A stretch of 64,000 nt of DNA from Candidatus Zixiibacteriota bacterium (GTDB lineage: Bacteria; RBG-13-66-14; B26-G2; WVWN01): assembly GCA_011773985.1 (NCBI GenBank), contig WVWN01000084.1, positions 23,738 through 87,737 of the forward strand, in the 5' to 3' direction. Position numbers and translations under genes: made by a program. Numbering within the stretch: the first letter of the stretch is position 1; every line of letters starts with the position of its first letter. This document shows positions 4,181 to 58,588 of this stretch, one piece after another. The notes under the pieces were generated by a model. The model saw only the letters and a program-made list of their open reading frames with translations. It was not told the origin of the DNA and ran no database searches.

Positions 4181-6820
4181 TTACTTCAGGACCGCCAACT
4201 TCTTCGTCACCGACGCCACCTCGCCCGTCGCTACCGCGCGCGCCGTCAACGTGAAGAAATAAACGTCGGCGCCGATGCCGGAGACGTCCCACGGCAAGCC
4301 TCTTTCCCCGGAATAAGCCTGGGCGTAACTCCCGATTTCGCCCACGAGCCGGCCCCGCATATCGTATATACACACGTTGACGTCGCTATCGCGCGTGACG
4401 AGAAAATGGAAATACCCCATGTCTTCGCGACAGGGATTGGGATAAAAGTAGACGTATTCCTTCGGCAAGAACTCGGGAGGCAGGATGAAGATGGGGGCCG
4501 CGGTGGCGTCGCCCCAGTTGGCGAACGCATCCTGCGCCCGCACGTAGACGATGAGCCGCGTCTCGCGCCGAGGTTGGCCGCCTATATCCGTCTCGGCGAA
4601 GACGGTCACCTTCGGCGATTTGAACTCGCCCTCCATCGGCTCCCCTTGGCCGGGGGGCGCCGGTTCTCTCCCGACCGAGAATTCCGCGGCCGCTATATTG
4701 GAATTGCCCCTTTTGGTGTCGTCCGCGGTCGCCGTTATCCGGACCTCAGTCTCGCCGTAAGTGGGATTAGGCTCGACCTTCACGTCGTAAACAATAGGGC
4801 CTTCGCGTTCACCTCGGAACGGCTCGCTGATAACGGGGCCGCCGCCCGAGCCGACGGTAAACGAAAACTTATACCGGCCGCCAGGCTCGCCGTCGCCGTC
4901 CGGGTCGATTTCTTTGCCGCGCGAGTCGAGGATCCTACGCCCGGGGGTACTTTCCAACGTCACGGTTATCGCGTCGTCAGCCTCGAACACGTCGTGGTAG
5001 ACCGTGAATTCGAAGTTGTCCTTGCGATAGATGTATCTCGGCCAATTGTATTGGCGCCTTTTACCCCTTATGACGACGTTCTCTTTCTTTATGGTCTCGG
5101 GTCTAACGCCCTTCGAGAACCAAAACGTAATGGGCACTTCGGCGGCCTGTTTCTCGGCCCGGTTCGGTGGATAAGTTTCGACGACCTTGCCGTAGGGAGA
5201 TAACATCGCGAGGCGCACTCTCTTGAGCACGGGCGGGAACTTTAGGCCTTCCGGCACGTCCAGACGGACTTTATATTGAACGAACCTCTTGTTATCGAGT
5301 TCGGCGGGCAAAGGCTGGCCGGGCGGCGCCTCGAGCCACGCGGGTTCGCCCGTTTGCGAGCCGCCGGGCGTTTTGAAGGCGTCGTAATCGTCGGCCGCGC
5401 GCAACCAGAACTTCGCGCCCCCGGAAGCCATCGCTCCCTCGAACTCGAGCTTTTTATATCGGACCAACTTATCCTCGGCGTCGTATACGGACGAGTACAG
5501 CTCGCCGCCCGAGTTGAAGCCGGCGAACCTTCGCGCGAAAACGAGGCCTCCCTTTTCGTAGGCCACGAAGTTGCCCCAAAAATCGGTCCCCGACGTTACG
5601 CCGACGACGTCCCGCGCGACGCCGCCGTCACCTTTGACCACGCCCCAATCGCCGGTGCCCGGATGTCGGGCGACGTAAACTTGATTGAAGTTGTCTCCCA
5701 ACGCCGCGACGGCCCCTTCGCCGCCGAACTCGTCGACCGCGACGAACGCGTTAAGGGTCGCGGCACCGACGGCCGCGGGGGTCACGTCCTCCCAGTAGAT
5801 GTAATCCTTGGTCCGGAACAGGCGCGCCTTGGGGCCCGGCGAACAGCCGCCCGCGGCGGCGTAGATATAATCGCCCACCTTGGCGAGGTCGTTGATGCCC
5901 CCGGCGGTGAGGTTGCCGACGCGCCGCGCGTACCACCTCTGCTCGCTTTTTTTCCACTGGTAGGCCATACCCATAGGCTCCGTACCGGCCAGAACGCCGG
6001 CTTCGGTCGCGTAAAGCGAAATTACCCCTTTAGCCTCCGCGAGCTTGCCGCCTAAAAGGGCCCAGCCGCGGGGATGGCGACGATACACCTCGGCCTCGCC
6101 GACCTTGGTACCCGTAACCCCCACGTAAACTTCGGCCGCCGCGGGCGCCGGCCCCGCGGCGACCGCGCTGAACCCCTTGAGCTGCATGGGCGGAACCCGC
6201 GGGTTCTCGTCGGGGGGTACGGAAACCCACGGCGGCGTGGGCACCGCTCCGGCGCGGTAGAACAACGGCGTCTTTTTTAGCGTTTGGCTCTGTACGAAAG
6301 TCGACGCGTATATATATCCCGACGTCGCCGTTCGCAACCAGGACAACGCGGTGACCCGGACCGAGCTGAACCCCTCGCTATCTTTGACGGGCGATACCTT
6401 CCAACTCGAGCCGCCGCGGTCTTCGGCGTAGCAAACGACGCCGGTGTTGGCTTGCGCACCCTTGCCGACGCCGCCGCACAAAATAGCCGTCTTGCCTTCC
6501 AACGTCGAAACGGAGAAGCGGCTGGCGCTCGCCATAAGCAACTCGCGCGGCGGCGCCCACGCGCTCCCCGGGCTGAGCCAAGGCGGCATAAACTCTAAGT
6601 CGACCCCCGCCGTCTTCCCCCAATAGGAGTTCTTGCCGTTCCAACCCTTCTCGGCCGGGCCGTCCCAACGGTCCTGGGTCCAAGCGACCTCGTAACCGCC
6701 CTCCGCCCCGGCAATCGCACGGGAGCTCCCGGCCGCCCCGCCTATAACCCCTTTCGCCGCGGCGCCGTGCCACACGTAAAAGCCTGCGAGCAACGAGGCC
6801 GCGATCAACTTCTTGAACAC
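4181..6820 (-). CDS. Large secreted protein with T9SS-type C-terminal sorting domain, paralogue A (about 879 aa)
   Basis: The ORF is open to 6868. The likely start is GTG 6820, preceded by GAAGGGGG and giving the signal peptide VFKKLIAASLLAGFYVWHGAAA. The C-terminus YFYPNPCREDMGYFHFLV...VNVCIYDMRGRLV...DVYFFTLTA...KKLAVLK matches the T9SS/FlgD-Ig-like CTD pattern. The protein is collinear with the downstream paralogue. Confidence 0.8.
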   Translation of the reverse strand: MFKKLIAASLLAGFYVWHGAAAKGVIGGAAGSSRAIAGAEGGYEVAWTQDRWDGPAEKGWNGKNSYWGKTAGVDLEFMPPWLSPGSAWAPPRELLMASASRFSVSTLEGKTAILCGGVGKGAQANTGVVCYAEDRGGSSWKVSPVKDSEGFSSVRVTALSWLRTATSGYIYASTFVQSQTLKKTPLFYRAGAVPTPPWVSVPPDENPRVPPMQLKGFSAVAAGPAPAAAEVYVGVTGTKVGEAEVYRRHPRGWALLGGKLAEAKGVISLYATEAGVLAGTEPMGMAYQWKKSEQRWYARRVGNLTAGGINDLAKVGDYIYAAAGGCSPGPKARLFRTKDYIYWEDVTPAAVGAATLNAFVAVDEFGGEGAVAALGDNFNQVYVARHPGTGDWGVVKGDGGVARDVVGVTSGTDFWGNFVAYEKGGLVFARRFAGFNSGGELYSSVYDAEDKLVRYKKLEFEGAMASGGAKFWLRAADDYDAFKTPGGSQTGEPAWLEAPPGQPLPAELDNKRFVQYKVRLDVPEGLKFPPVLKRVRLAMLSPYGKVVETYPPNRAEKQAAEVPITFWFSKGVRPETIKKENVVIRGKRRQYNWPRYIYRKDNFEFTVYHDVFEADDAITVTLESTPGRRILDSRGKEIDPDGDGEPGGRYKFSFTVGSGGGPVISEPFRGEREGPIVYDVKVEPNPTYGETEVRITATADDTKRGNSNIAAAEFSVGREPAPPGQGEPMEGEFKSPKVTVFAETDIGGQPRRETRLIVYVRAQDAFANWGDATAAPIFILPPEFLPKEYVYFYPNPCREDMGYFHFLVTRDSDVNVCIYDMRGRLVGEIGSYAQAYSGERGLPWDVSGIGADVYFFTLTARAVATGEVASVTKKLAVLK

Positions 6821-7026: not shown

Positions 7027-9705
7027 TCACCTCAAGACCGCCAATTTTTTGGTAACCGAAGCCTCCTCGCCGTCCTCGTGCGAGCGGGCCGTCAGCCGGA
7101 AGATGTAGACGTCCGCGCCCACGCCCGAGATATCCCACCTCAAGCTATCGCTGGAAAAAGCTCTGACGTCGGCCTCAATTTCATCAACCAGCCGGCCCCT
7201 AATATCGTATACGCGGACGTTAACGTTGCTGTTTTTAGTAACCAGATAATGGAAATACCCGGTATCGCCGCGGCACGGGTTGGGATAAAAATAAACGTAC
7301 TCTTTAGGCAAGAACTCGGGGGGCCGAACGAAGATAGTAGCCGCCGTCGGGTCTCCCCAGTTGCCGGCCACATCCTTAGCCCGGACGTAAACCATCAGCC
7401 GCTCCTCGCCGGCGCCCACGCCGCCAATGTCGGCTACCGCCCAAACGGTTATCTTCGGGTAATGGCCGAAATCCCCCTCCATCGGTTTACCCTTCCCCGC
7501 GGGGGCCGGGCTACGGCCGAAGGAGTACTCCGCGGCTACGATGTTCGAGCGGCCGGTCTCGGTGTCGTCCGCGACGGCCGTAATTTTAACCTCTCGTGCG
7601 CCGTACGTGGGGTTCGGCTCGACCGCGACGTCGTAGACCTTGGGCCCTTCGGTCTCGCCGCCGCCATCTTTGCCGACGTTAAAGGAAAATTTATACATGC
7701 CCCCTCTGTCGCCGTCGCCGTCGGGGTCGATCTCTTCGCCCCAGTAGTCGAGGATCTCGCGGTCTTTGATGCTCTCCAAAACCACGGTGATTTGGTCGTA
7801 GGCCTTGAATTTCTCGTGGTTTATAACGAACTCGTCGGTGAACGGCGGATTCTCGCCCCACCACGCGTACTCTTCGCCTTCCCTGCCTTTAATTTTCAGA
7901 TTATAGCGGGTTATGGTCGCCGTTCGAACGTCTTTCGAAAAAACGAATTTGATGGGTACGTCGACTTTTTGGTTGGTTGCGCCTTTCGCGGGATACGTCC
8001 CGGTAACTTTGCCCCACGTCTGGAACGTCACCACGCGGACCTTCTTGACGACGGGAGGGAACTTCTGGCCGTCCGGAACGTCGAGTTGGACCTTGTACTG
8101 GATATATCTCTTACCGTTTAGTTCGGGAGGCAAAGGTTGCCCGGGCGAAACGTTTACCCAGGGTGGTTCGCCCGACCCCCACCCCTCGGGGGTTTTGAGG
8201 GCGTCGTAGTCGCGGGACGCGCGCAACCAGAACTTCGCGCCCCCGGAAGCCAGCGGCCCCTCGAACTCGAGCTTTTTATATTCGACCAACTTATCGTGGG
8301 AATCGAATACCGACGAGTAAAGTACGCCGTCCTTTTTGAACCCCTGAAATTTCCGGGCGTAAACGCCGCCGCTCACGCAGGCGACAAAATTTCCCCAGAA
8401 ATCGGTACCCGAGGCCACGCGGGCCAGGTCCTTCCCGCTTCCGCCGTCGCCCTTGACCAAGCCCCAACCGCCCGCCTCCGGCGAGTGGGCTACGAAAATC
8501 TGGCCGAAGGAGTCGCCCAAGGCGGCGACGGCGCCGTCCTTGCCGAACGCGTCCACCGCGACGAACGCTTTTAGCGCGCCCGCGGCGGAGCCTTTGGGGG
8601 TAACGTCGGCCCACTGGGCGTAATTGTCTTTGGCCCGGAACAGGCGGGCCTTGGGCTCAGGCGAGCAATTCCCCAAGGCGGCGTATACGTAATCGCCCAC
8701 CGGGGCGAGGTCGTATATCACGCCGGCCGTGAGCTGCCCCACCCGCCTTTCTTCCCATTTTTTCCGGTTTTTATCCCACTCGTAAACCAGGCCGTTGGGC
8801 CCGGTCCCGGCCAAGACGCCCGTCGGGACCGTGCAAAGCGAATAAACCCCCTTTGCCCTCGGAAGCCCGGCGCTACCCAAAAGCTCCCAATTCCGCGGGT
8901 AATTAAAATGATAAACCTTCGCGGCGCCCGCGCCCGGAACGGTACCCAAGTAAACTTCCGGGTTCGTGCCGGCCGCCCCCGGCGAGATAGCGGTAAACGC
9001 GTAGAGACCTCGGGGCGGAATAAGGGGAGAGCTCTGCTCCGGGGCCGAAACCCAATAGGACGACGGCACGACGCCGCCGCGGTAAAATAACGGCGTCTTG
9101 GGCGTTGACACGTTTGGCATACGCGTCGCGGCGCATATATATCCCGACGTAGACGTAGGGAACCAGCACAAGTCGAAAACTCTTTTGGCCTTGAACCCCC
9201 TGCTGTCGCCGACCTCCGAGACCTTCCAACTTGCGCCTTCCCTATCCTCCGCGTAACAGACAACGCCGGTATCGGCGTACGGGCCGGTACCGACGCCGCC
9301 AAATAGGATGCAGGTTTTCCCGGCGGCGGAGGAAACGGCGAAACGGCCAGCCGCGGCCAAAGGGAGGTCGCGCCGCGCCGCCCACGAGGACGCGGGGGCC
9401 AGCGACGGTTCCATAAAGGCCAAGTCGACGTCGTCGGTCTTCTTCCAATAGGAGTTCTTGCCATCCCACTGTTTCTGGACGGGCCTACCCCAACCATCCT
9501 GTTCCAACGATTTATCGTAACCGCCGTCCGGGGCGAATGGGGGCAGCCGTGTCCCGGCCGCCAAGGCCGCGGCGCGAGCCCCGGCCGCTTTGGCGCGAAG
9601 CCCCTCGGCCAATTTTATTTTCCGGGCTTCGCCGTTCGGCGCCGCGGCGCTCCTCCAAACAAACAGGGTGCACAACGCCGACGCGGCAAATACTCTCCTA
9701 AGCAC
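7027..9705 (-). CDS. Large secreted protein with T9SS-type C-terminal sorting domain, paralogue B (892 aa)
   Basis: Signal peptide MLRRVFAASALCTLFVWRSAAA. It shares long identical blocks with paralogue A (GKNSYW, TGVVCYAEDR, KTPLFYR, PKARLFR, SGTDFWGNFVA, YKKLEFEG, ASGGAKFWLRA, IDPDGDG, VEPNPTYG, PPEFLPKEYVYFYPNPCR, ASVTKKLAVL). Confidence 0.85.
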   Translation of the reverse strand: MLRRVFAASALCTLFVWRSAAAPNGEARKIKLAEGLRAKAAGARAAALAAGTRLPPFAPDGGYDKSLEQDGWGRPVQKQWDGKNSYWKKTDDVDLAFMEPSLAPASSWAARRDLPLAAAGRFAVSSAAGKTCILFGGVGTGPYADTGVVCYAEDREGASWKVSEVGDSRGFKAKRVFDLCWFPTSTSGYICAATRMPNVSTPKTPLFYRGGVVPSSYWVSAPEQSSPLIPPRGLYAFTAISPGAAGTNPEVYLGTVPGAGAAKVYHFNYPRNWELLGSAGLPRAKGVYSLCTVPTGVLAGTGPNGLVYEWDKNRKKWEERRVGQLTAGVIYDLAPVGDYVYAALGNCSPEPKARLFRAKDNYAQWADVTPKGSAAGALKAFVAVDAFGKDGAVAALGDSFGQIFVAHSPEAGGWGLVKGDGGSGKDLARVASGTDFWGNFVACVSGGVYARKFQGFKKDGVLYSSVFDSHDKLVEYKKLEFEGPLASGGAKFWLRASRDYDALKTPEGWGSGEPPWVNVSPGQPLPPELNGKRYIQYKVQLDVPDGQKFPPVVKKVRVVTFQTWGKVTGTYPAKGATNQKVDVPIKFVFSKDVRTATITRYNLKIKGREGEEYAWWGENPPFTDEFVINHEKFKAYDQITVVLESIKDREILDYWGEEIDPDGDGDRGGMYKFSFNVGKDGGGETEGPKVYDVAVEPNPTYGAREVKITAVADDTETGRSNIVAAEYSFGRSPAPAGKGKPMEGDFGHYPKITVWAVADIGGVGAGEERLMVYVRAKDVAGNWGDPTAATIFVRPPEFLPKEYVYFYPNPCRGDTGYFHYLVTKNSNVNVRVYDIRGRLVDEIEADVRAFSSDSLRWDISGVGADVYIFRLTARSHEDGEEASVTKKLAVLR

Positions 9706-11808: not shown

Positions 11809-13005
11809 TCAAACCGACTCCCGCCGCTCGAGCCGAACCGACAACCGCCTCGCTGCATTTTTAAATAAAGGCAGGTCATCCTCCAGGACGCTCCGCATAT
11901 CGACGAAAACGGCGTCGCCCGTCGCCCGCGCTAAAACCGGCGGCTCGAGGCCTCTTAGCGCGGCGCTGAGCGCGTGCGGCCTTAAACGTTCGTGCCTCAG
12001 CGCGACGACCGTCGTAGGCAAACGGACGTACGGCAACGTTCCCCCGCCGGCGTAGGATTCCGCCTCAACTGTGGACACCTCCAGGCCGGGGACCTTCGCC
12101 TCCCGGAAATAGCCGGCGACCACGGCCGCGAGCTTATCCAAATCGGCCCGCGAGCGCTTGAGCAACCTGTAGGTAGGTATATCCTCCAACGCGTCGCCGC
12201 CCTCGAGATAAGCCTCGAGCACCGCGGCGAGTAGCGCGTACGTCTCTTTCCCGCCCCGGAGCGCGCGGTACAAGCTGTCGCGGCGCAACTCCTCGAGCGC
12301 CTCCGCCTTCCCCACGACGACGCCGGCCTGCGGCCCGCCGAGTAACTTGTCGCCGGAGAAAGAGACGACATCTACGCCCGCGTCGAGCAAATTCTCGAGC
12401 GAAGGCTCGTTGGCGGAGACGAATTCCGGGAAAAGCGACGCGCTGAGCAAGCCGCTGCCCAAATCGTACAATACGCGCCTGCCGTATTCCGCGGCCAGCG
12501 CCACGACCTCGTCGGGGCGCGGGTCCTCGTACCGCCCTCGGAAGTAAAAATTGCTGCGGTGGGCCAAGACGACCAGAGACGCGCCGGCGTCGAGTGCCCG
12601 CCGGAAATCCTCCAGCCGCGTTACGTTTACCGTTCCTACGGGCAAAAGTTCGACGCCGCCCGAGGCCATAACCTCGGGCAACCGGAAGGCGCCTCCGATC
12701 TCCACGAGTTGGCCCCGACTCGCCGCGGCCGGCCGGCCGTCGCCCAGCGCGTGAAGCGCGAGCAGGACCGCGCCCGCGTTGTTGTTGACGACCAACGCAT
12801 CTTCCGCCCCGGTCAACGCGCGCAGCGGCTCCGCGACCAACGAGTCGCGCCGGCCGCGTTCGCCGCTCTCCAAATCCACCTCGAGGTTACTATAGCCCGC
12901 GAGTATGCGCCCCGCGCGCTCGAGGAGGGCAGGCCCGAACGGCGCCCGGCCCGCACCGGTGTGTAAAATTACGCCCGTCGCGTTGACGAGCCGCCTCATC
13001 AACAT
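11809..13005 (-). CDS. SelA-like PLP-dependent protein (L-seryl-tRNA(Sec) selenium transferase family) lacking the N-terminal tRNA-binding domain (398 aa)
   Basis: Family motifs NATGVILHTGAGRAP near the N-terminus and FSGDKLLGGPQAGVVVG (PLP lysine). The ORF starts about where canonical SelA has residue 70-80. The upstream sequence is an AT-rich promoter region, not coding. Confidence 0.8.
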   Translation of the reverse strand: MLMRRLVNATGVILHTGAGRAPFGPALLERAGRILAGYSNLEVDLESGERGRRDSLVAEPLRALTGAEDALVVNNNAGAVLLALHALGDGRPAAASRGQLVEIGGAFRLPEVMASGGVELLPVGTVNVTRLEDFRRALDAGASLVVLAHRSNFYFRGRYEDPRPDEVVALAAEYGRRVLYDLGSGLLSASLFPEFVSANEPSLENLLDAGVDVVSFSGDKLLGGPQAGVVVGKAEALEELRRDSLYRALRGGKETYALLAAVLEAYLEGGDALEDIPTYRLLKRSRADLDKLAAVVAGYFREAKVPGLEVSTVEAESYAGGGTLPYVRLPTTVVALRHERLRPHALSAALRGLEPPVLARATGDAVFVDMRSVLEDDLPLFKNAARRLSVRLERRESV

Positions 13006-14086: not shown

Positions 14087-14404
14087 ATGAGGTACACGAT
14101 AGTCGTCGCCATCATCGTTACGATTCTCGCCCTTGGGGCCGCTCTCTACGGTTGTAAGAAGAAGGAAGAAGTAGCCCCGCCCGCCGAAACCGCGGCCGAG
14201 ACGGAAGCGGCAATAAGCGAGGAAGAGGTCGTCTGCCCCGCTCCCGGCGAAGACCTGATTTGCGTGGAGTGCAAAGAGCTCTTCGTGACCGACGATGAAT
14301 ACGCCGCGCACATGGAAAAACAACACCCGGAAAAATGGACCGTAATAAAAGAAAAGTTCCACGAAATGCGCAAGGGCGAGGAGGGCGAGGAAACGACGAA
14401 GTAG
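14087..14404 (+). CDS. Small putative lipoprotein with a C2H2 zinc-finger-like motif and acidic tail (105 aa)
   Basis: Signal/lipobox-like N-terminus (ILALGAALYGC) and GGAGG upstream. Motif CVECKELFVTDDEYAAHMEKQH fits C-x2-C-x12-H-x4-H. Confidence 0.65.
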   Translation: MRYTIVVAIIVTILALGAALYGCKKKEEVAPPAETAAETEAAISEEEVVCPAPGEDLICVECKELFVTDDEYAAHMEKQHPEKWTVIKEKFHEMRKGEEGEETTK

Positions 14405-14505: not shown

Positions 14506-14718
14506 GTGGGCCGAGCGCCGTCAAAAAAAGTGCCGATCTACGAATACAGATGCGAAGAGTGCGGCGCCGTATTCGAACGGCTCTGCCGTAATTACGAAGA
14601 GACGGGGGCGCGTTGTCCCGATTGCAATTCCGAGAGGTGTCGTCGGCTGATATCGCGCGTCGCGGCGTCGGCCTCGAAGCTCGACCCCTGCGAAGTATGC
14701 ACCGTCGAACCGGGTTGA
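14506..14718 (+). CDS. FmdB-family zinc-ribbon protein (about 62-70 aa)
   Basis: PIYEYRCEECGAVFE ... CPDCNS pattern (two CxxC pairs) typical of FmdB/CxxC_CxxC_SSSS proteins. The true start may be GTG 14530 (VPIYEY). Confidence 0.7.
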   Translation: MGRAPSKKVPIYEYRCEECGAVFERLCRNYEETGARCPDCNSERCRRLISRVAASASKLDPCEVCTVEPG

Positions 14719-14974
14719 AGCAAATAACGTGCCGGGCGGCGCGTTTTGACTATTCAAACACGTACGCGTTTAAAATAAGCCGTTTAAACAGTCGTCTCTG
14801 AGCTAATCATAAACAAACCCGAGGCATAATCATCCGCGGGAACCCCTTGCGCGGCGAGGTCCTTTACGGTATTATCGGCCACTACCACGGGGGAAAAACC
14901 GCGCGGTGAAGCTCGGAGCGATTCGCTCGAACCACATATCGTATCAAGGAAATCGCCCTTGGGAGTAGTGACCC

Positions 14975-15424
14975 ATGGCCGAAGAACAGTTCGAAGAGTT
15001 CCAAAACCCTCCCAACGAACGGTTGGAGGAGCTCCTCAAAAAGTATAAAAACGTCGCCGTGGCGGGTCTGACGCCCAAGCAGGAATCGAACGCCAACCGC
15101 GTCGCGCGGTTCCTCAAACGCCACGGCTTCCGCATCTATCCGGTCAATCCTCGCTACGAGTCGATACTGGGCGAAGTCACCTGGCCCTACATCAGAAACA
15201 TAACGGACCCGGTCGACATCGTGGAAGTCTTCCGCAGGCCCGAACACCTCGGCGGCATCATAGAGGACGCCGCGAAGGTAAACGCGAAAGTGATTTGGCT
15301 TCAACTCGGCGTCGTGGACGAGGACTTCGCTCGCCGGGCGAAGGAGGCCGGCTTCGAGGTCGTAATGGACCGGTGCATGAAGAAAGAATACGAGCGGCTG
15401 GTCTTGAAGCGGCGAGTGAGGTAG
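14975..15424 (+). CDS. CoA-binding domain protein (YccU-like, 149 aa)
   Basis: KNVAVAGLTPKQESNANRVARFLKRHGFRIYPVNP and VDIVEVFRRPE, characteristic of the CoA_binding_2 family. Confidence 0.8.
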   Translation: MAEEQFEEFQNPPNERLEELLKKYKNVAVAGLTPKQESNANRVARFLKRHGFRIYPVNPRYESILGEVTWPYIRNITDPVDIVEVFRRPEHLGGIIEDAAKVNAKVIWLQLGVVDEDFARRAKEAGFEVVMDRCMKKEYERLVLKRRVR

Positions 15425-15426
15425 CC

Positions 15427-16368
15427 GTGGCGGCGAGCGAACACGCACTCGCCATCGTGGGCGGCGGCCCGGCCGGCCTGACCGCGGGCATATACGCCGC
15501 GCGCGACCGCCTGGATACGGTCCTGTTGGAAGCCAAGCCGTTGACCGGCGGCCAGATAGTGTTTACGGACGTCGTGGAGAACTACCCCGGCTTCCCGGAG
15601 CCGCTCTCCGGCGCGGAACTGATGGACAAGATGCGCAAGCAGGCCGAGCGCTTCGACCTGCAAATCGCTACCGCGGAAATAGGGACCGTCCGGGCGCAAG
15701 GCGATAAATACCTCCTGGCCGGCGACAAGGCGGACTATTTAGCGCAGGCCGTCATCGTCGCCACCGGGACCGAAAGCCAGAAGCTCGGCGTGCCGGGGGA
15801 AGAGGAATTCTGGGGCGCGGGCGTAAGCACCTGCGCCACGTGCGACGGCCCGTTGTATCGGGACAAGCCGGTCGCGGTCGTGGGCGGCGGCGACAGCGCC
15901 GTCAAGGAGGCCGTATACCTTACGAAGTTCGCGAGCAAGGTCTACGTCATCCACCGGCGCGACAGGCTGCGCGCCGAGAAGATCATCCAGGAGGTCGCCT
16001 TAGCCAACGAAAAGGTCGAGTTCGTGTGGGATACGGTCGTTACCGAGATGGCGGGCAAAGACGGCCTCGAGGCGCTGAAGCTGAAACACGTCAAGACCGG
16101 GGCGGAGAGCGAGGTGGCGGTGGACTGCGTCTTCCTATACGTCGGCGTCCGGCCGAATACGGACCTGGTGAAGGGTTTGGTCGAACTCGACGAGCGCGGC
16201 CTCATCGTCACCGACGACGACATGCGCACGAGCGCGCCCGGCATCTTCGCCGCGGGGGACTGCCGTTCCAAAAAGCTTAAGCAGGTCGCGACGGCGGTGG
16301 GGGAAGGCGCGGTGGCCGCGTACTCGGCCCAGGAGTACATCACCGGGGGCCCCTATGGCGGCGGTTAA
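15427..16368 (+). CDS. trxB: Thioredoxin-disulfide reductase (313 aa)
   Basis: Start moved to GTG 15427, directly after the upstream stop and with GAGG upstream. FAD motif IVGGGPAGLTAGIYAAR, redox-active CATCDG and NADPH motif VVGGGDSAVKEA are present. Confidence 0.93.
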   Translation: MAASEHALAIVGGGPAGLTAGIYAARDRLDTVLLEAKPLTGGQIVFTDVVENYPGFPEPLSGAELMDKMRKQAERFDLQIATAEIGTVRAQGDKYLLAGDKADYLAQAVIVATGTESQKLGVPGEEEFWGAGVSTCATCDGPLYRDKPVAVVGGGDSAVKEAVYLTKFASKVYVIHRRDRLRAEKIIQEVALANEKVEFVWDTVVTEMAGKDGLEALKLKHVKTGAESEVAVDCVFLYVGVRPNTDLVKGLVELDERGLIVTDDDMRTSAPGIFAAGDCRSKKLKQVATAVGEGAVAAYSAQEYITGGPYGGG

Positions 16369-16384
16369 AACGTCGTTTTGGATA

Positions 16385-16528
16385 TTGGTTGGCGGCGGCG
16401 CCGGCTTAGCGGTGGGCCATCTGGTGCGGTGCGCCGGCTCGAGTTGAGCCGCGGCCTCGAGCCCGTGGCTAGCGGGCTTCCTGGGCGGCGTGGTGGGCTT
16501 GCTAGTTGCGACAACGAGCTGGCGGTGA
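16385..16528 (+). CDS. Mini-ORF unit 1: two hydrophobic segments separated by an in-frame TGA (16445-16447); start uncertain
   Basis: Frame reads (W)ILVGGGAGLAVGHLVRCAGSS-TGA-AAASSPWLAGFLGGVVGLLVATTSWR-TGA. It is paralogous to unit 2 on both sides of the internal TGA. Confidence 0.35.
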
Positions 16529-16529
16529 G

Positions 16530-16715
16530 ATGCTCAAATTCGGCATCGCGGTACTGTTGGGAGGCGCCGGCTTCGGCGCGGGGTACCTTTTCCACCAACT
16601 CGCGCTTGCGCCGCGCGGCCTCACGATTTGAGCGAGCCAGGGCTCGCCCTGGGTTACCGGGGCGATCGTCGCGGTCGTCGGCGTCCTCGTCGCGCTGATG
16701 ATGAGGACGAAATAA
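16530..16715 (+). CDS. Mini-ORF unit 2: two hydrophobic segments separated by an in-frame TGA (16629-16631)
   Basis: The ATG lies 1 nt after the unit 1 stop. Frame reads MLKFGIAVLLGGAGFGAGYLFHQLALAPRGLTI-TGA-ASQGSPWVTGAIVAVVGVLVALMMRTK-TAA. The second half has no start codon of its own, yet it is conserved with unit 1 mainly through synonymous codon changes. Confidence 0.45.
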
Positions 16716-16728
16716 AAAGGAAAAAGAA

Positions 16729-16756
16729 GCCGGCCCGGGGCCGGCGTTTTTGTTTT
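16729..16756. terminator. Intrinsic terminator closing the CoA-binding/trxB/mini-ORF unit (convergent with the DUF362-like gene)
   Basis: GCCGGCC-CGG-GGCCGGC hairpin followed by GTTTTTGTTTT and preceded by an A-run. Confidence 0.7.
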
Positions 16757-41682: not shown

Positions 41683-41761
41683 CGCGAAAAATCAAACCGA
41701 GAGTTGTGCCGAGGCCGTGAACGACGCTGACGCGTGTACCCCCGCCAGGGGGCGTTTTTAT

Positions 41762-44700
41762 ATGATGGAGAGGCGTTGCTGGTGGCGACGCGTCCCCATC
41801 GGCGGCCTTCTCGCTCTCGCGGCCGCGAGCGCCGCGGCCGGGGCGGCCGAGGGCCAACCGCGGTGGGCCGAGACCTTGGCGGCCTCGCGCCATTCCTACG
41901 AGGTCGCGGAAATCGCCGAGGGCGCCACTTATAAATTACCCCACAAGTTTATCTTCTACGATTCCGAAGTCGTACGCGTAGGGGACGACGTCTGGGAGCG
42001 CGGTCGCGAATACCGGCTCGAGTACGACGCCGGGAACCTAACGGTACTCGCGGCGCCGCCCTACGCCGGGCCCTTAGTCGTCGAATACGAATATCTACCC
42101 TTCCTGCAATCGGAAGACTACCGCGCGGCGCTGGAGGGCGAGGACGAGGCCGAGGCGCTCGAGCGCATAGAGGAGGCGGCCGCGGCTCCCTCCCAGCTGG
42201 ACATAACCGGCTCCAAGACCTTCTCCGTCTCGAGCGGCAACGTTCAAGGAACGGACTTCGACCAATCGCTCCGCCTTTCCATCCGCGGGAACGTCGGCGA
42301 CGTCAAGATCACGGGCGAAATCTCCGACCAGGACCTGCCGTTGGAGGAGGGAGGGGCTACGAAGGACGTCGAGGCGGTCGACAAGGTAAGCCTCCGCGTG
42401 GAGGGGCGCCACCTGGCCGGGACCTTCGGCGACTACGACGCAGACGTCACCGGCCGCCGCTTCGCGGAATACCAACGGCGCCTCACGGGCATCAAGGGCG
42501 AAGCCTTCTATCCAACCTGGCGGGCCGACGCCCACGGCGCGCGGGCGCGCGGGCGCTTCGCGAGCAACGAGTTCTACGGCGTCGACGGCGTCCAGGGCCC
42601 GTATCAACTCGCGGCCCGCGACGACGAGAACATTACGGTCCTGCCGGGAACGGAGACGGTATGGCTGAACGGCGTCAAATTAAAAGAGGGGGAGAACAAC
42701 GACTACCTCGTGGAATACGACCTCGCGACCATAACCTTCACGGTCCGGCGGCCCATCTCTGCGGAGGACCGCGTCGTCGTCGACTTCCAATATACGACCG
42801 AGGAATACCAGCGCAATTTCTTCGGCGCGGAGAGCGAGGGGCACTTCGCGGGGGACGCCGTCAACGTCGGCATTTTATATTTACAAGAGGAAGACGACCG
42901 CGACCGCGACTTCTTCGGCCTGGGCGACTACGAGAAGAAGCTTCTGGAGGGGGCGGGCGACGACGAAGAGCGGGCGCGGATCTTCGCGCGCGACGAAAAC
43001 CGCGAGATAATCTTCGAATACGTCGGCGAGGGCCAGGGGGAGTACACGCGCCGCTGGGACCCCGAGAAGGGGAAATACGTCTACGAGTACGTCGGCGCGG
43101 GCAACGGCGACTACATGCCGAGGACGATCCTGCTGCCGATGCCCAAGCGCCACAGCCTCGTCGACGTAAATACGACCCTCGCGCCGTCGCGCCTCATCAC
43201 CGTGGAGGCGGAAGGCGCAACGAGCGACGTCGACGCCAACACCTTCTCGACCCTGGGCGACGCAGACAACACCGGCCTCGCCGGCTCCGCCGCCGCCACC
43301 GTCCGCCTCGACGCGGTCGAACTTTTTCGGCCCGCGGGGGAGTTGGAAGTCCGGCACGTTCAGGAGATGAGGGACAAACGTTTCCGCAACCTCGGCCGGG
43401 ACGACGGCGTCGCATTCTTGCAGGATTGGGACCTCGAGGACGAGGTCGCGGGGCTGGCTCGGCCGCCGGGGTATAACCTTCACGAGACCACCGTCACCGA
43501 GCGGCCCACGCCGGCGCTCGCGCTGTCGGGCACCTACGGCGGCATCCACCAACGCTACGCCGGCGTCTCCGCGAAAGGCTATCGGTATCAGCGCGGCGAA
43601 CGGACCGCGGCCTCCCTCAGCTGGGAGCCCGAGCGTTGGCCGCACGTCGGCTACGACTGGAACAGCGTGCGGCGCCGAGGCCAGCGGGGGGCGCCGCCGG
43701 TCGACCCCGTCGACGAAAAGGTAGGCAAAAAGCTTCTTACCTACGACGAAAACACCCGGCGCGAACAGGAGGGGAAAGTCTCGTACGCGTTCTGGCGGCT
43801 TAGCCCGTACGTCCGAATTCACGATAAGAAACGGCGCGCCGATTACGGCATCGACGGCGCGCCCGACGCCGGCAGCCTCGAGCAGGAGCTCGAGATGGGA
43901 ACGGGCGTGCGGCCGGCCGCGGGTTGGGTCGTCCAGTTCGGCCATACCGTAGGCCGCGGCGAGAAAGTGGACGACTACAAATTTATCCCCCATTACCGCA
44001 AAAGAGAAGAGAGAGCCATCACCTCCTACGATTACCCGGGCCTCGTAAACGTAAACGGCGAATTCACGAGGATAAGGAAAGACTTCTACGCCGCGGACGA
44101 GGGGGACGTCGACACGTACCTGTCGCTCGTCGAAACGGTATATACGCCGCTTGCGCGGGCGCTGGCGATATCGACGCGCTACGAACTCGAAAGCCTGCAG
44201 GAATTCGAGCGCGAAGAAATATTCGAAGTCGCGCCGGACGGCGACGGCGACTACCGGCGCGAAGTCGACCCCAAAAACCCGGGCCGCTACGTCTACATAT
44301 ACGACCCGGACAGCCCGGACGCCATCTACATAAAGAGGTATCGCCCCACGGGCCGGAGGTTCCCGGTCCTGAAGCCGGACCTCACCGTCAGCCTCGGCTT
44401 CCGGCCGTACAGCATCAACGACGCGCGGGGCAGCGCCGGCGAGCGGAACCCCTGGCTGGACGCCGCGGCCGCGGACCTCTACGTACACGCGCGGAACAGC
44501 TCCACGTCGCCGCGCCGCTTCGCCGTCGCGACGCTCCAAGACCTCCTGGCGAAAGATTCTCTCGACAGCAGCCTCGAGCAACGGTACACCCTCACGCTCT
44601 TTCCCGTGCGCCGCCGCGTCACGGGGCTCGCGCGCTACGCGACCAAGGACGACCTCGAGCGAACGGTGGCGTCGCGCCAGGTGCGGCGGAAGCGCACGTC

Positions 44701-45217
44701 GCGATATGCGGAGGTCGTCGGCGAGCCGACCCGCCGCCTTACGGTCCAAGTCGACGTGGAAAGGGTGCGGGAACGGGAAACGGTGACGGAGGAGAACATA
44801 AGTCGACCCGAGAATACGTACGCCAAAGAGATGCTATACGGCGTGGAACCGACCTACAGCTTGACGGCGCGCTTGGACGTCAAGGCGCGGGGCGAGCTTT
44901 CGCAGCGGCACGAGGATTACAACGGCGCGTCGACCCACATAAAGGGCATCGTAACCAAACCCGAAGTCACGTACCGCCTGGCGGAATCGGGCGTGGCGAA
45001 CGTATGGTACGAGAGGTCGCAGTTCGACGTTTCCGGGTATACCGGCTCGGAGACGCTGCTCGTGCGCGTCCCGGGCGTAACCCACAAGTGGGAGGCGAGC
45101 GTCAACAAGGGCGTAGGCCAATACGTGACGCTCATCTTCACGTACGACGGCGAAAAAAGGCCGGACGAGGAGATAACGAGCCATCGGGGCCGGGTCGACG
45201 TAAACATATACTTCTGA
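41762..45217 (+). CDS. Very large predicted outer-membrane protein of unknown family (about 1151 aa)
   Basis: The ORF is open from 41717; ATG 41762 gives the signal peptide MMERRCWWRRVPIGGLLALAAASAAAGAAEG. The protein is beta-rich with many aromatic-x-aromatic segments, and its C-terminal residue is Phe (RVDVNIYF). Its stop overlaps the Omp85 start (TGATG). Confidence 0.7.
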   Translation: MMERRCWWRRVPIGGLLALAAASAAAGAAEGQPRWAETLAASRHSYEVAEIAEGATYKLPHKFIFYDSEVVRVGDDVWERGREYRLEYDAGNLTVLAAPPYAGPLVVEYEYLPFLQSEDYRAALEGEDEAEALERIEEAAAAPSQLDITGSKTFSVSSGNVQGTDFDQSLRLSIRGNVGDVKITGEISDQDLPLEEGGATKDVEAVDKVSLRVEGRHLAGTFGDYDADVTGRRFAEYQRRLTGIKGEAFYPTWRADAHGARARGRFASNEFYGVDGVQGPYQLAARDDENITVLPGTETVWLNGVKLKEGENNDYLVEYDLATITFTVRRPISAEDRVVVDFQYTTEEYQRNFFGAESEGHFAGDAVNVGILYLQEEDDRDRDFFGLGDYEKKLLEGAGDDEERARIFARDENREIIFEYVGEGQGEYTRRWDPEKGKYVYEYVGAGNGDYMPRTILLPMPKRHSLVDVNTTLAPSRLITVEAEGATSDVDANTFSTLGDADNTGLAGSAAATVRLDAVELFRPAGELEVRHVQEMRDKRFRNLGRDDGVAFLQDWDLEDEVAGLARPPGYNLHETTVTERPTPALALSGTYGGIHQRYAGVSAKGYRYQRGERTAASLSWEPERWPHVGYDWNSVRRRGQRGAPPVDPVDEKVGKKLLTYDENTRREQEGKVSYAFWRLSPYVRIHDKKRRADYGIDGAPDAGSLEQELEMGTGVRPAAGWVVQFGHTVGRGEKVDDYKFIPHYRKREERAITSYDYPGLVNVNGEFTRIRKDFYAADEGDVDTYLSLVETVYTPLARALAISTRYELESLQEFEREEIFEVAPDGDGDYRREVDPKNPGRYVYIYDPDSPDAIYIKRYRPTGRRFPVLKPDLTVSLGFRPYSINDARGSAGERNPWLDAAAADLYVHARNSSTSPRRFAVATLQDLLAKDSLDSSLEQRYTLTLFPVRRRVTGLARYATKDDLERTVASRQVRRKRTSRYAEVVGEPTRRLTVQVDVERVRERETVTEENISRPENTYAKEMLYGVEPTYSLTARLDVKARGELSQRHEDYNGASTHIKGIVTKPEVTYRLAESGVANVWYERSQFDVSGYTGSETLLVRVPGVTHKWEASVNKGVGQYVTLIFTYDGEKRPDEEITSHRGRVDVNIYF

Positions 45218-57029: not shown

Positions 57030-57545
57030 CTAATAAATTTCGACGGACCGCTCGACGGCGTCGAAGTAAGGCCGGGCGGCCTCGCGTTGTCCCTCGTACG
57101 CGGCGAAGGTAATAAAATAATACCGTGCGTTCCCCCGGACCACGAGCGCGCGCGTCCAAACCCGTTCGCCGTCGCGCGTGGCCCAATATTCGAACGCCCT
57201 GCCCGGGCGGCCTCCCACGGCAACGTCCGCGGCCACAACGCCGCGCGCCCCCGCGATCTTTCGCTCGAGCGACGACGCCGCGACCTCCAGCGGCGCCCCG
57301 CTCAAGGCCCCCACGACGCTCACGCCCGCGCCGGCCGTCTTCGTCCCGCGCGGCGCCCGGACCTCCAGAATCAAAGCCGCCGCCCCCTCGCCCGCGCTCG
57401 CCTCCCAATCGGCGGGATATTCCAACTTAATGCCCCACACGTCGTTCGCGAAAGGCACGGCCGTCGGCGCCTCGCGGCCCCCGCAACTCAAGGCCGCGGC
57501 CGCGACGGCCGCCGCGGCGGCAAGACTGAGCCGCGTATTACTCAC
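57030..57545 (-). CDS. Hypothetical lipoprotein, PsbP/DcrB-like (171 aa)
   Basis: GTG start overlaps the upstream stop by 8 nt. Lipobox AAAALSCGG. The fold assignment is a weak impression only. Confidence 0.6.
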   Translation of the reverse strand: MSNTRLSLAAAAAVAAAALSCGGREAPTAVPFANDVWGIKLEYPADWEASAGEGAAALILEVRAPRGTKTAGAGVSVVGALSGAPLEVAASSLERKIAGARGVVAADVAVGGRPGRAFEYWATRDGERVWTRALVVRGNARYYFITFAAYEGQREAARPYFDAVERSVEIY

Positions 57546-58515
57546 CCTTGCTCGAGAGGAGCCGCCGCAAACGTTCCTCGAAGACCTCCCGCCCGGCGGA
57601 GCCGTAAATGTGGCCGCGCACGATGCCGCCGCTATCGATGAAATAGGTTTGGGGTATTCCTCCGGTCGGGCCTACGTACTTAGCCGCGGCCTCGCCGTCG
57701 TCGCGCAAGACCGGGTAGTTAATGCCGTGCTCCTCGGCGAAGGCGGCGACGTCCGCGGTCGCGTCGTCGACGGAAATGCTCAGCACGGCGACCTCGCCGT
57801 CGTGGTCGCGCGCGAACGCGACGACGTCCGGGATTTCGTCCGCGCAGGGCGGGCACCACGTCGCCCAGATGTTAAGGACTACGGGTTTGCCTTCGAAATC
57901 CGCGAGGCGGTACCGGCGGCCGTAGATATCCGTCAACTCGAAACCGGGTGCCCGCTCGCCCGGCTTCACGGTCATATTTTTCACTTCTTCTTCGGCCGCC
58001 TTCTTTTCCGCCTTCGCGAGCATATCCACCAGGGCCTCTTCGCCGCGCAGCAAGGCCAGGTCGTCGTCGGCGCGGGCGTAGCGCGCGAAAAGCGGTTCCG
58101 CCTCGAGGCTGGCTCGCAAACAATCGAGCGACTTCGGCGCGTTGCCGAGGCGAGCGTAGGAGCAGGCCATATTATAAAAAACTCCCGGATACTCGAGCCG
58201 CTCCGAGGGGTCGACCTTCCTCAGGCCCTCCTCGTACGCGGCGACCCCCTTCTCGTAATCCGAGAACTCGTCCTCGAGGTACATATCGCCGAGGGCGAAG
58301 TACAGGTCCGCGGCCGGGAACTTAGCCGAGGCGGCGTCGATCAATTCCCTCAAGCGCCCCTCGTCGCCGGCGCGGTACGCGCCCCGGGCCGCGGCGACGA
58401 CGTCGTCGAGCGAGGCCGTCGCGAGCTCGAGCTCCTCCTCGGCGCCGAACGCCGCGGCGCCCGTCATGCCCGCAACGAGAACGGCTAAAATTATTTTTGG
58501 CGCCAGGCCTTTCAT
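57538..58515 (-). CDS. Secreted TPR-domain / TlpA-like thiol:disulfide oxidoreductase fusion (325 aa)
   Basis: Start moved to ATG 58515, giving the signal peptide MKGLAPKIILAVLVAGMTGAAAFG. TPR-like N-terminal half; thioredoxin-fold C-terminal half with NIWATWCPPCADE. Confidence 0.85.
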   Translation of the reverse strand: MKGLAPKIILAVLVAGMTGAAAFGAEEELELATASLDDVVAAARGAYRAGDEGRLRELIDAASAKFPAADLYFALGDMYLEDEFSDYEKGVAAYEEGLRKVDPSERLEYPGVFYNMACSYARLGNAPKSLDCLRASLEAEPLFARYARADDDLALLRGEEALVDMLAKAEKKAAEEEVKNMTVKPGERAPGFELTDIYGRRYRLADFEGKPVVLNIWATWCPPCADEIPDVVAFARDHDGEVAVLSISVDDATADVAAFAEEHGINYPVLRDDGEAAAKYVGPTGGIPQTYFIDSGGIVRGHIYGSAGREVFEERLRRLLSSKGE

Positions 58516-58524
58516 CGCCTCGCT

Positions 58525-58553
58525 AAGATAACACAACGGCGCCCGGGCCGCAA
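58525..58553 (-). promoter_or_regulatory. Candidate promoter of the TlpA-like gene (leaderless configuration)
   Basis: Minus strand reads TTGCGG-N17-TATCTT, followed by 9 nt and then the ATG at 58515. Confidence 0.45.
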
Positions 58554-58588
58554 GGGCGACGGCCCCGGGTATCATTCCGCCGCAAGTG

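Follow-up and report, generated by a model that had tools for sequence, protein, structure and literature searches.

What happens when translation reaches a TGA codon that divides a very small gene between its two hydrophobic segments? This question is raised by a 64,000-nucleotide stretch of DNA (contig WVWN01000084.1 of assembly GCA_011773985.1, positions 23,738 to 87,737), hereafter called the window, in which the thioredoxin reductase gene trxB is followed by two short open reading frames (ORFs) named here unit 1 and unit 2. Each unit carries an in-frame TGA that is flanked on both sides by a hydrophobic segment. The answer favored here, with a probability of about 0.72, is that the units are tandem, translationally coupled genes of the trxB operon that encode helical-hairpin membrane selenoproteins of 57 and 61 residues. 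As judged from comparisons of gene sequences, these products are most likely an undescribed pair of selenocysteine (Sec)-containing proteins from the uncultured phylum Coatesbacteria.

The core of the locus comprises the following features.

15427..16368, forward strand: trxB, low-Mr thioredoxin-disulfide reductase, with a GTG start, a TAA stop at 16366-16368, and a CATC active site.
16355..16528, forward strand: unit 1, with 57 codons, encoding a helical-hairpin membrane protein that resembles DUF6132 and has the motif C26-x4-U31 (U being the proposed Sec).
16445..16447, forward strand: proposed Sec codon of unit 1 (in-frame TGA), the same in all 10 lineages.
16530..16715, forward strand: unit 2, a 61-codon paralog of unit 1, with U34 and no partner Cys in the window copy.
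16629..16631, forward strand: proposed Sec codon of unit 2 (in-frame TGA), the same in all 10 lineages.
16729..16755, forward strand: intrinsic terminator closing the trxB-unit 1-unit 2 transcription unit, found by a terminator scan, with 7 G-C pairs followed by a T run.

The enzyme encoded by trxB belongs to the TIGR01292 equivalog family (392.9 bits against a cut-off of 343) and also matches the Pfam family Pyr_redox_2. An earlier reading of this DNA, made from the letters alone (the sequence-only reading), had described two mini-ORFs with an in-frame TGA between hydrophobic segments, lying between trxB and a terminator, and all of these elements can be confirmed. The start of unit 1 requires correction, because the gene has its own ATG at 16355, which is 24 nt upstream of the start given previously and overlaps the final 14 nt of trxB. 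The translation of unit 1 reads MAAVKTSFWILVGGGAGLAVGHLVRCAGSS-TGA-AAASSPWLAGFLGGVVGLLVATTSWR-TGA. Unit 2 does begin one base past the unit 1 stop, as had been noted, with an ATG at 16530 and a Shine-Dalgarno-like sequence, GGTGA, that overlaps this stop; its translation reads MLKFGIAVLLGGAGFGAGYLFHQLALAPRGLTI-TGA-ASQGSPWVTGAIVAVVGVLVALMMRTK-TAA. With 57 and 61 codons and two hydrophobic segments each, the units agree with the earlier estimate of small proteins of about 50-60 amino acids with two transmembrane segments. A scan of the locus revealed no promoter-like or terminator-like site between trxB and the units, and a terminator is located after unit 2 in every related locus.

Relatives of the locus were gathered by a trxB-based scan of species-representative genomes and by a unit 2-based scan of metagenomes. 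The order trxB, unit 1, unit 2, terminator was recovered in eight further lineages (L001, L002, L082, L083, L084/85, L086, L087, and L088/89), and a ninth is represented by a complete genome, CP070633.1 (L097). One additional locus, L081, has the same sequence as the window and was left out of the count. The comparison therefore encompasses 10 lineages, the window and nine other Candidatus Coatesbacteria, and 20 unit genes. The sequence-only reading had proposed that the codon be inspected in related genomes, and in all 20 genes it is TGA, with no replacement by TGC or TGT. The genuine stop codons vary among the same lineages, being TGA, TAG, or TAA in unit 1 and TAA, TAG, or TGA in unit 2. 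Because the pattern recurs codon for codon in nine other lineages, it is not a product of chance. All ten assemblies lack gene calls for the units, since the TGA cuts each product into pieces too short to be called.

The regions downstream of the TGAs evolve as protein-coding sequence. Frame shifts or a loss of conservation beyond the TGA had been named as outcomes that would speak against read-through; instead, the post-TGA length is fixed at 26 codons in unit 1 and 27 codons in unit 2 in all lineages, without insertions or deletions. The pooled ratio of nonsynonymous to synonymous substitution rates (dN/dS) is 0.39 after the TGA and 0.41 before it in unit 1, and 0.25 after and 0.26 before in unit 2, where the synonymous rate (dS) across the unit halves ranges from 0.44 to 0.79. 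After either TGA, the conserved SPW motif is reached without an ATG, GTG, or TTG in between. Furthermore, TGA is the stop codon of 17 of the 46 predicted genes in the window, among them lon, glyA, selA, and topA, which agrees with the earlier judgment that global reassignment of TGA is unlikely. A codon-usage scan of the whole window yielded no other credible in-frame TGA within coding sequence, and ranked the unit 2 TGA second, below a mere gene junction. These comparisons indicate that both TGAs are almost certainly recoded, which is to say read through.

The identity of the inserted residue is suggested by the protein family to which unit 1 appears to belong. When U is written as C, the sole Pfam match of unit 1 is DUF6132 (PF19628; E=1.2e-5; 25.3 bits versus a gathering threshold of 23.2), and the match spans positions 6-57 of the 60 in the profile. 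All eight of the unit 1 orthologs tested match PF19628 and no other family, with scores from 12.8 to 28.5 bits. The gathering threshold is reached by three of nine sequences (window, 25.3; L083, 28.5; L097, 24.3), and scores in the remaining six lineages run from 12.8 to 21.2. When unit 1 (U changed to C) was searched against a protein database, no match was obtained, as the word index gave just 6 candidates. Real DUF6132 members were therefore retrieved with a query seeded by three consensus-like sequences, which served as bait and never as evidence, and were then aligned. The nine unit 1 orthologs, with Sec entered as X, align with 40 of these members by hhalign in the register described below (95.4% probability, E=1.6e-8). 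No PDB relative of DUF6132 was found; an AlphaFold (AF2) model of one member, P0001, has a helix at residues 2-33, a loop at 34-41, and a second helix at 42-59, with a predicted local distance difference test (pLDDT) score of 71.5.

The defining motif of DUF6132, GCxSG(T/S)CxITSxP, is located at the turn that joins the two helices. In unit 1 the corresponding motif is RC(A/V)GSx-TGA-xxxxSP, which places Cys26 on the first family Cys and the TGA on the invariant second Cys. A proline follows six residues past this second position in DUF6132 and unit 1 alike (P37 in unit 1). On the strength of these alignments unit 1 is probably a divergent DUF6132 member, and the pairing of its TGA with an invariant Cys would constitute a Cys/Sec pair of the kind expected for a selenoprotein and its ordinary homologs. 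Unit 2 appears to reach this pair only through its paralogy to unit 1, which is well supported (hhalign, 95.3%, E=2e-8). It keeps U and P at the unit 1 spacing, and the first Cys is gone in most lineages. A partner Cys occurs at variable positions in some lineages, as CxxU in L002 and L082 and as UxC in L088/89. Unit 2 gives no hit when scored with the PF19628 profile.

Sec insertion in bacteria is directed by a selenocysteine insertion sequence (SECIS), and a candidate for this element lies after each TGA.

16459..16479, forward strand: SECIS-like hairpin of unit 1, with stem 16461-16467 paired to 16471-16477 and a loop that starts with G.
16644..16666, forward strand: SECIS-like hairpin of unit 2, with stem 16646-16652 paired to 16657-16663 and the loop GUUA.

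The short hairpins that the sequence-only reading had proposed after each TGA both exist, and alifold consensus structures place one 3' of each TGA in all lineages. The unit 1 consensus is GCCCGUG[GCU or GGU]CRCGGGC, spanning positions 17-33 when the U of UGA is position 1, and that of unit 2 is GCCCUGG[GUYA]CCGGGGC at positions 18-35. The conserved 7-bp stems begin 13-14 nt downstream of UGA, and the first loop position is G. The second hairpin is closer to its TGA than the earlier figure of about 24 nt, because the stem starts 14 nt and the loop 21 nt after this codon. In unit 1 the stem has 7-8 bp, the loop is GCU or GGCUA, the spacing is about 19-20 nt, and the minimum free energy (MFE) is -13.1 kcal/mol, with a z score of -3.1 relative to shuffled sequences. 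The corresponding values for unit 2 are a stem of 7-9 bp, the loop GUUA, a spacing of 21 nt, an MFE of -18.6 kcal/mol, and a z score of -5.3. The published model of bacterial SECIS (bSECIS) elements specifies 3-9 nt for the apical loop and 4-16 bp for the upper stem, with G as the first or second loop nucleotide, a distance of 16-37 nt between UGA and loop, and an MFE of at most -7.5 kcal/mol (PMC13188914). A comparison of the post-TGA sequences with such a model had been suggested earlier, and both hairpins lie within every one of these limits. A search of Rfam gave no family at the gathering score, and a relaxed threshold produced terminator-driven chance matches only.

The stems are nearly invariant. 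In unit 1, 98.6% of cells in the alignment are paired, with changes limited to G-C to G-U and U-A to U-G, and in unit 2 the figure is 100%, with all pairs invariant. The stems overlap the conserved SPW(L/V)(T/A)G codons, and conservation of amino acids alone could mimic a conserved structure; for this reason the comparison was confined to residues identical in all lineages, and to the synonymous third positions of their codons. Third positions are frozen in 6 of 7 stem codons versus 3 of 26 elsewhere (Fisher p=4.8e-4), and the single change within the stem codons turns a G-C pair into G-U. The sequence-only reading had counted 11 identical residues between the post-TGA halves of the two units, 8 of them with different codons, and took this as a sign of selection on the protein. 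The count is exact. Part of the pattern is explained by the hairpins, since the paralogs encode the shared Ser-Pro...Thr-Gly residues with different codons, and in each paralog these codons are complementary to the other arm of that paralog's own stem. Separately, the unit 2 post-TGA half (16632-16712 in the window) has a dS of 0.44 versus 0.73-0.79 in the other three half-genes, which fits an RNA constraint that reaches past the 7-bp stem.

A gene for Sec synthesis and a further gene with an in-frame TGA complete the evidence. The former lies 3.4 kb from the units.

11809..13005, reverse strand: selA, selenocysteine synthase core, 398 aa, TIGR00474, without the N-terminal tRNASec-binding domain.

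The sequence-only reading had called this gene SelA-like. It is more than that in one respect, as its score of 403 bits to TIGR00474 exceeds the SelA equivalog cut-off of 268, and less in another, as the N-terminal domain is missing. The match covers profile positions 73-450 of 455, and the frame upstream of selA is closed, meaning that the domain is truly lacking. The short protein starts at the boundary of the N-linker and the core, in the window (11809-13005, reverse strand) as in relatives (10001-11191 in L097 and 10001 to about 11190-11290 in L098, L099, and L100). Close homologs are annotated as Candidatus Coatesbacteria, and more distant SelA proteins have about 470 aa, most with the N-terminal domain PF12390. 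The best PDB match is 3w1i, the SelA-deltaN construct of A. aeolicus, and when this alignment is mapped by hand the pyridoxal phosphate lysine and the selenophosphate-binding residues Arg86, Arg312, and Arg315 are found to be kept, along with Arg119, Asp284, Ser217, and Ser282. The dimer-dimer segment 218-224 with Tyr220 is also kept, together with Asp199, Arg174, and Thr191, and in this the protein differs from H. pylori SelA. The gene is retained under purifying selection.

The complete genome of L097 carries, at about 14577-14860 on the reverse strand, an unannotated full-length SelW-like gene (Rdx, PF10262) that reads ...ITYCLE-TGA-GYASRAAGL.... Only if read through does it match PF10262, at positions 2-74 of 74 with E=7e-19, and the public gene call at this site comprises only the 55 residues after the TGA. 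The gene adjoins a DsbD_TM/CcdA-like gene at 14769-15575, and in this genome it and the two units all lie within 8.6 kb around selA. No SelW-like gene and no further gene with an in-frame TGA was found in the window.

Overall, Sec is probably the residue inserted at both UGAs, to judge by the combined sequence evidence: the placement of the TGA on an invariant Cys, the fit of the hairpins to the bSECIS model, the frozen stem sites, the absence of TGC and TGT codons, and the SelW-like CxxU gene make it the best-supported form of recoding. The suggestion of read-through or Sec insertion made by the sequence-only reading is thus upheld, with preference for the latter, and the missing SelA domain weighs on the other side. 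In mechanistic terms, each hairpin would act as a bacterial SECIS, at which SelB and Sec-tRNASec may insert Sec at the UGA. The modified residue would then be located in the short turn between two hydrophobic helices, at the position of the invariant second Cys of DUF6132.

Hints regarding function come from gene neighborhoods. The sample comprised six loci of Bacteroidota with Cys-type DUF6132, and the features reported here are empirical, not curated. A thioredoxin gene is immediately downstream of DUF6132 in four of the six (L090, L092, L102, and L103) and nearby in L101, and all six contain genes for thiol or sulfur redox functions, such as OsmC, DsbA-like proteins, a fusion of metallo-beta-lactamase (MBL) and rhodanese domains, rhodanese, and YeeE/YedE. 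Methyltransferases and regulators of the ArsR, MarR, or AraC type are also present in these loci. Taken with the trxB linkage of the units, these neighborhoods suggest that DUF6132 has kept its tie to the thioredoxin system in different phyla and in both the Cys and the Sec form. We infer that the turn motif may be a redox-active center, or one that binds chalcogen or a soft metal, and that it is recycled by thioredoxin reductase and thioredoxin. A thioredoxin-linked redox role is put forward only tentatively, at somewhat less than even odds. The proposed Sec would serve as a membrane-proximal center that undergoes redox chemistry or binds chalcogens or soft metals and is maintained by the thioredoxin system. 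Its partner in unit 1 would be Cys26, the two forming a selenenylsulfide couple of the Cx4U type. Units 1 and 2 probably would assemble into a hetero-oligomer through a glycine zipper, and the thioredoxin reductase expressed alongside them would, by way of thioredoxin, recycle the center once it is oxidized.

Several observations weigh against this reading. The main evidence against Sec is the domain-less SelA. All SelA homologs with at least 50% identity to the window protein are about 391-428 aa and lack PF12390, and main-lineage SelA proteins without the N-terminal domain occur in bacteria that have lost the Sec trait (PMC4607533). This domain recognizes the D-arm of tRNASec (PMC11047290). 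Moreover, selB, selD, and a tRNA-Sec gene were not found in the 64-kb window, as the sequence-only reading had already recorded, or in 21-kb loci around selA of four relatives. Double-sided compensatory changes are absent from both hairpins across the lineages because the stems are essentially invariant, and the structural evidence is thus one of conservation, not compensation. Taken alone, unit 2 gives a weak profile match to DUF6132, albeit in the same register, and it has no partner Cys in the window, L001, L083, L084/85, L086, L087, and L097. With respect to function, gene neighborhood is the sole ground for the proposal, and the positive-inside rule predicts that the DUF6132 turn faces the periplasm, away from the cytoplasmic thioredoxin reductase and thioredoxin.

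The most serious rival holds that the UGA is recoded but not as Sec. Cys might be inserted by a selC-like tRNA(UCA) with a SelB-like factor, or the hairpins might stimulate near-cognate read-through with Trp, Cys, or Arg. Reportedly, work by Mukai and colleagues describes Cys-for-Sec recoding by tRNASec-like tRNAs in some uncultured bacteria. The only SelA seen lacks the tRNASec-binding domain, which the literature treats as a mark of non-Sec organisms, and neither the window nor the relatives' selA loci revealed selB, selD, or selC. Even so, this explanation is rather improbable. If Cys were the inserted residue, mutation of one base to give TGC or TGT in place of TGA should carry no cost or even be favored, and the absence of such a change from all 20 genes at a dS of 0.44-0.79 is hard to explain. 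Furthermore, selA remains under purifying selection with its selenophosphate-binding arginines intact, and in L097 it lies amid three TGA-containing genes, one of which encodes a SelW-like protein, a type long known for its Sec forms.

The other explanations are excluded or very unlikely given the invariance of the TGA, the selection acting beyond it, the stop codon usage, and the recurrence across lineages. If translation stopped at the TGA, the products would be single-helix peptides of 30 and 33 residues, and the downstream conservation would have to be put down to RNA structure or to a set of four separate micro-ORFs. In this genome TGA does serve normally as a stop, and the hairpins are indeed conserved at the nucleotide level, but the variation after the TGA is codon periodic with dN/dS as upstream, and the conservation spans the whole second hydrophobic helix, well past the hairpin. 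In addition, the downstream halves have no start codon ahead of the SPW motif, the two-helix DUF6132 architecture is matched only by the full read-through product, and a codon at which translation ended should have changed to TAA or TAG in some lineages, as has happened at the genuine stops; termination is accordingly a very poor candidate. Genome-wide reassignment of TGA (code 4 or 25), a pseudogene, or an assembly artifact has nothing in its favor beyond the in-frame TGAs themselves and is refuted by the 17 of 46 genes (lon, glyA, selA, and topA among them) that stop at TGA, by the lack of another convincing in-frame TGA in the window-wide scan, and by the identical architecture in 10 independent assemblies.

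Returning to Sec insertion as the preferred reading, a more ambitious version can be formulated. Coatesbacteria may run a working Sec system whose sole SelA is without the tRNASec-recognition domain, and may use it to make a trxB-coupled, approximately 6-kDa membrane selenoprotein pair with a hetero-oligomeric Se/S center, which would constitute a minimal thioredoxin-dependent redox relay or a chalcogen/soft-metal gate. This composite is speculative and, as a whole, is considered unlikely. If it were correct, the SelA of this clade would be a natural equivalent of the SelA-deltaN crystallization construct (3w1i).

Various additional observations were made at these loci. In a more distant Coatesbacteria relative (L100, whose SelA is 69% identical), at positions 6150-6580 on the reverse strand, a terminator comes straight after trxB and the mini-ORFs are absent, although this genome keeps the short SelA. 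The presence of trxB without the units suggests that the units are an acquisition of one Coatesbacteria subclade. A split-off ORF for the SelA N-terminal domain was sought with a hidden Markov model (HMM) of 50 full-length SelA N-termini among six-frame ORFs of the window and L097-L100, which returned nothing at E<4. A 105-aa ORF is present at 14087-14404 (forward) in the window, at 8614-8925 (reverse) in L097, and at 8496-8810 (reverse) in L100; it has the lipobox LYGC and a Cys/His motif, CPxPG...CxxC...H...H, and matches no Pfam family. With the same HMM, this lipoprotein-like ORF was rejected as a split SelA N-terminal domain.

Two further genes near selA or trxB belong to families with known Sec forms. 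A gene for an FmdB-type zinc-ribbon protein (PF09723) is located between miaA and trxB at 14506-14718 on the forward strand of the window, and L097 has two copies at 8045-8275 and 8313-8504. The FmdB family (TIGR02605) is among those with Sec forms, as UxxU (2026 review, PMC13188914), and the window protein is the all-Cys form. A gene of the DUF523/2-thiouracil-desulfurase family (PF04463) is found at 7349-8317 on the reverse strand of L099, 1.7 kb from the short selA of this distant relative, and its family is likewise listed with Sec forms (2026 review, PMC13188914). Elsewhere in the window, three very large ORFs at 4181-6820 (reverse), 7027-9675 (reverse), and 41717-45217 (forward) encode 879, 882, and 1166 aa and have a strong coding signal with no Pfam domain at E<=1e-6. 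A 345-aa protein encoded at 57538-58575 (reverse) has an AhpC/TSA-Redoxin domain in the last 140 residues only, and the 200 residues ahead of it form an N-terminal region without a Pfam match.

Existing descriptions of selenoproteins do not include these units. The sole match for DUF6132 in the full-text literature is a chance string in an unrelated paper, and a 2026 review table of prokaryotic selenoprotein families has no entry for DUF6132, PF19628, or Cx4U (PMC13188914). Likewise, no credible match to the units exists in NCBIfam release 20, whose models include the curated ones for selenoproteins. The field recognizes a selenoprotein family by Cys homologs, TGA-containing orthologs, and a bSECIS element (PMC13188914), and the combination of all three at this locus would define a new family. 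If so, a selenoprotein family that is invisible to standard annotation would be added to the catalog, and its members, as integral-membrane proteins, would be unusually small for bacterial selenoproteins. For DUF6132, which is widespread and of unknown function, the Sec/Cys pair would also offer an initial clue to what the family does, and together with the conserved thioredoxin or thioredoxin reductase neighborhood it would mark the CxxxxC turn as an active, probably redox, site. Finally, this clade provides a test case for the published generalization that a SelA without the N-terminal domain means no Sec decoding, because it combines such a SelA with three genes that have all the sequence hallmarks of Sec.

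The closest known relatives of the units are the Cys-type DUF6132 proteins, found mainly in Bacteroidota. Like unit 1, these proteins have about 60-70 residues, two helices, a C-x4-C turn, the same proline spacing, and a glycine-rich first helix, and like the units their genes are tied to the thioredoxin system. In contrast, the second Cys codon of unit 1 is TGA (Sec) and not TGY, and its sequence is divergent. The units also differ from DUF6132 in their tandem duplication, in having thioredoxin reductase and not thioredoxin as the neighbor, in their occurrence in the phylum Coatesbacteria, and in the loss of the first Cys from unit 2. A parallel to the tandem arrangement exists nonetheless, because several Bacteroidota loci have a second small Cys-rich membrane ORF directly upstream of Cys-type DUF6132, so that here, too, tandem small Cys-bearing membrane proteins lie beside thioredoxin. 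In three loci (3784-4017 in L092, 2784-3017 in L101, and 3196-3423 in L094) this is a 75-77-aa, two-helix ORF with the motif GCCGxxGC, and in two of them it overlaps DUF6132. It has no precomputed Pfam hit and, within the comparisons made, shows no homology to unit 2; our impression is that it is presumably DUF2892/YgaP-like.

Established bacterial selenoproteins with CxxU or UxxC motifs, such as SelW-like (Rdx), thioredoxin-like, and AhpD-like proteins, share with the units a UGA at the position of a redox Cys and a SECIS directly downstream, as well as Cys-containing homologs and TGA-containing orthologs in other organisms (PMC13188914). The units differ in being integral-membrane mini-proteins, not soluble thioredoxin-fold domains. 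Rare MerT-family selenoproteins have been mentioned (Haft, bioRxiv 10.1101/2022.07.06.499078), and none of the Mer families in Pfam or NCBIfam matches the units at E<=10. The likeness to the mer system is a functional analogy only. In that system, the small Cys-containing membrane proteins MerT, MerF, and MerE pass a thiophilic substrate to the cytoplasmic reductase MerA. The units resemble them as very small membrane proteins with paired thiols or a selenol, encoded beside a pyridine-nucleotide disulfide oxidoreductase, whereas the reductase of this locus is a canonical thioredoxin reductase (TIGR01292) and not MerA.

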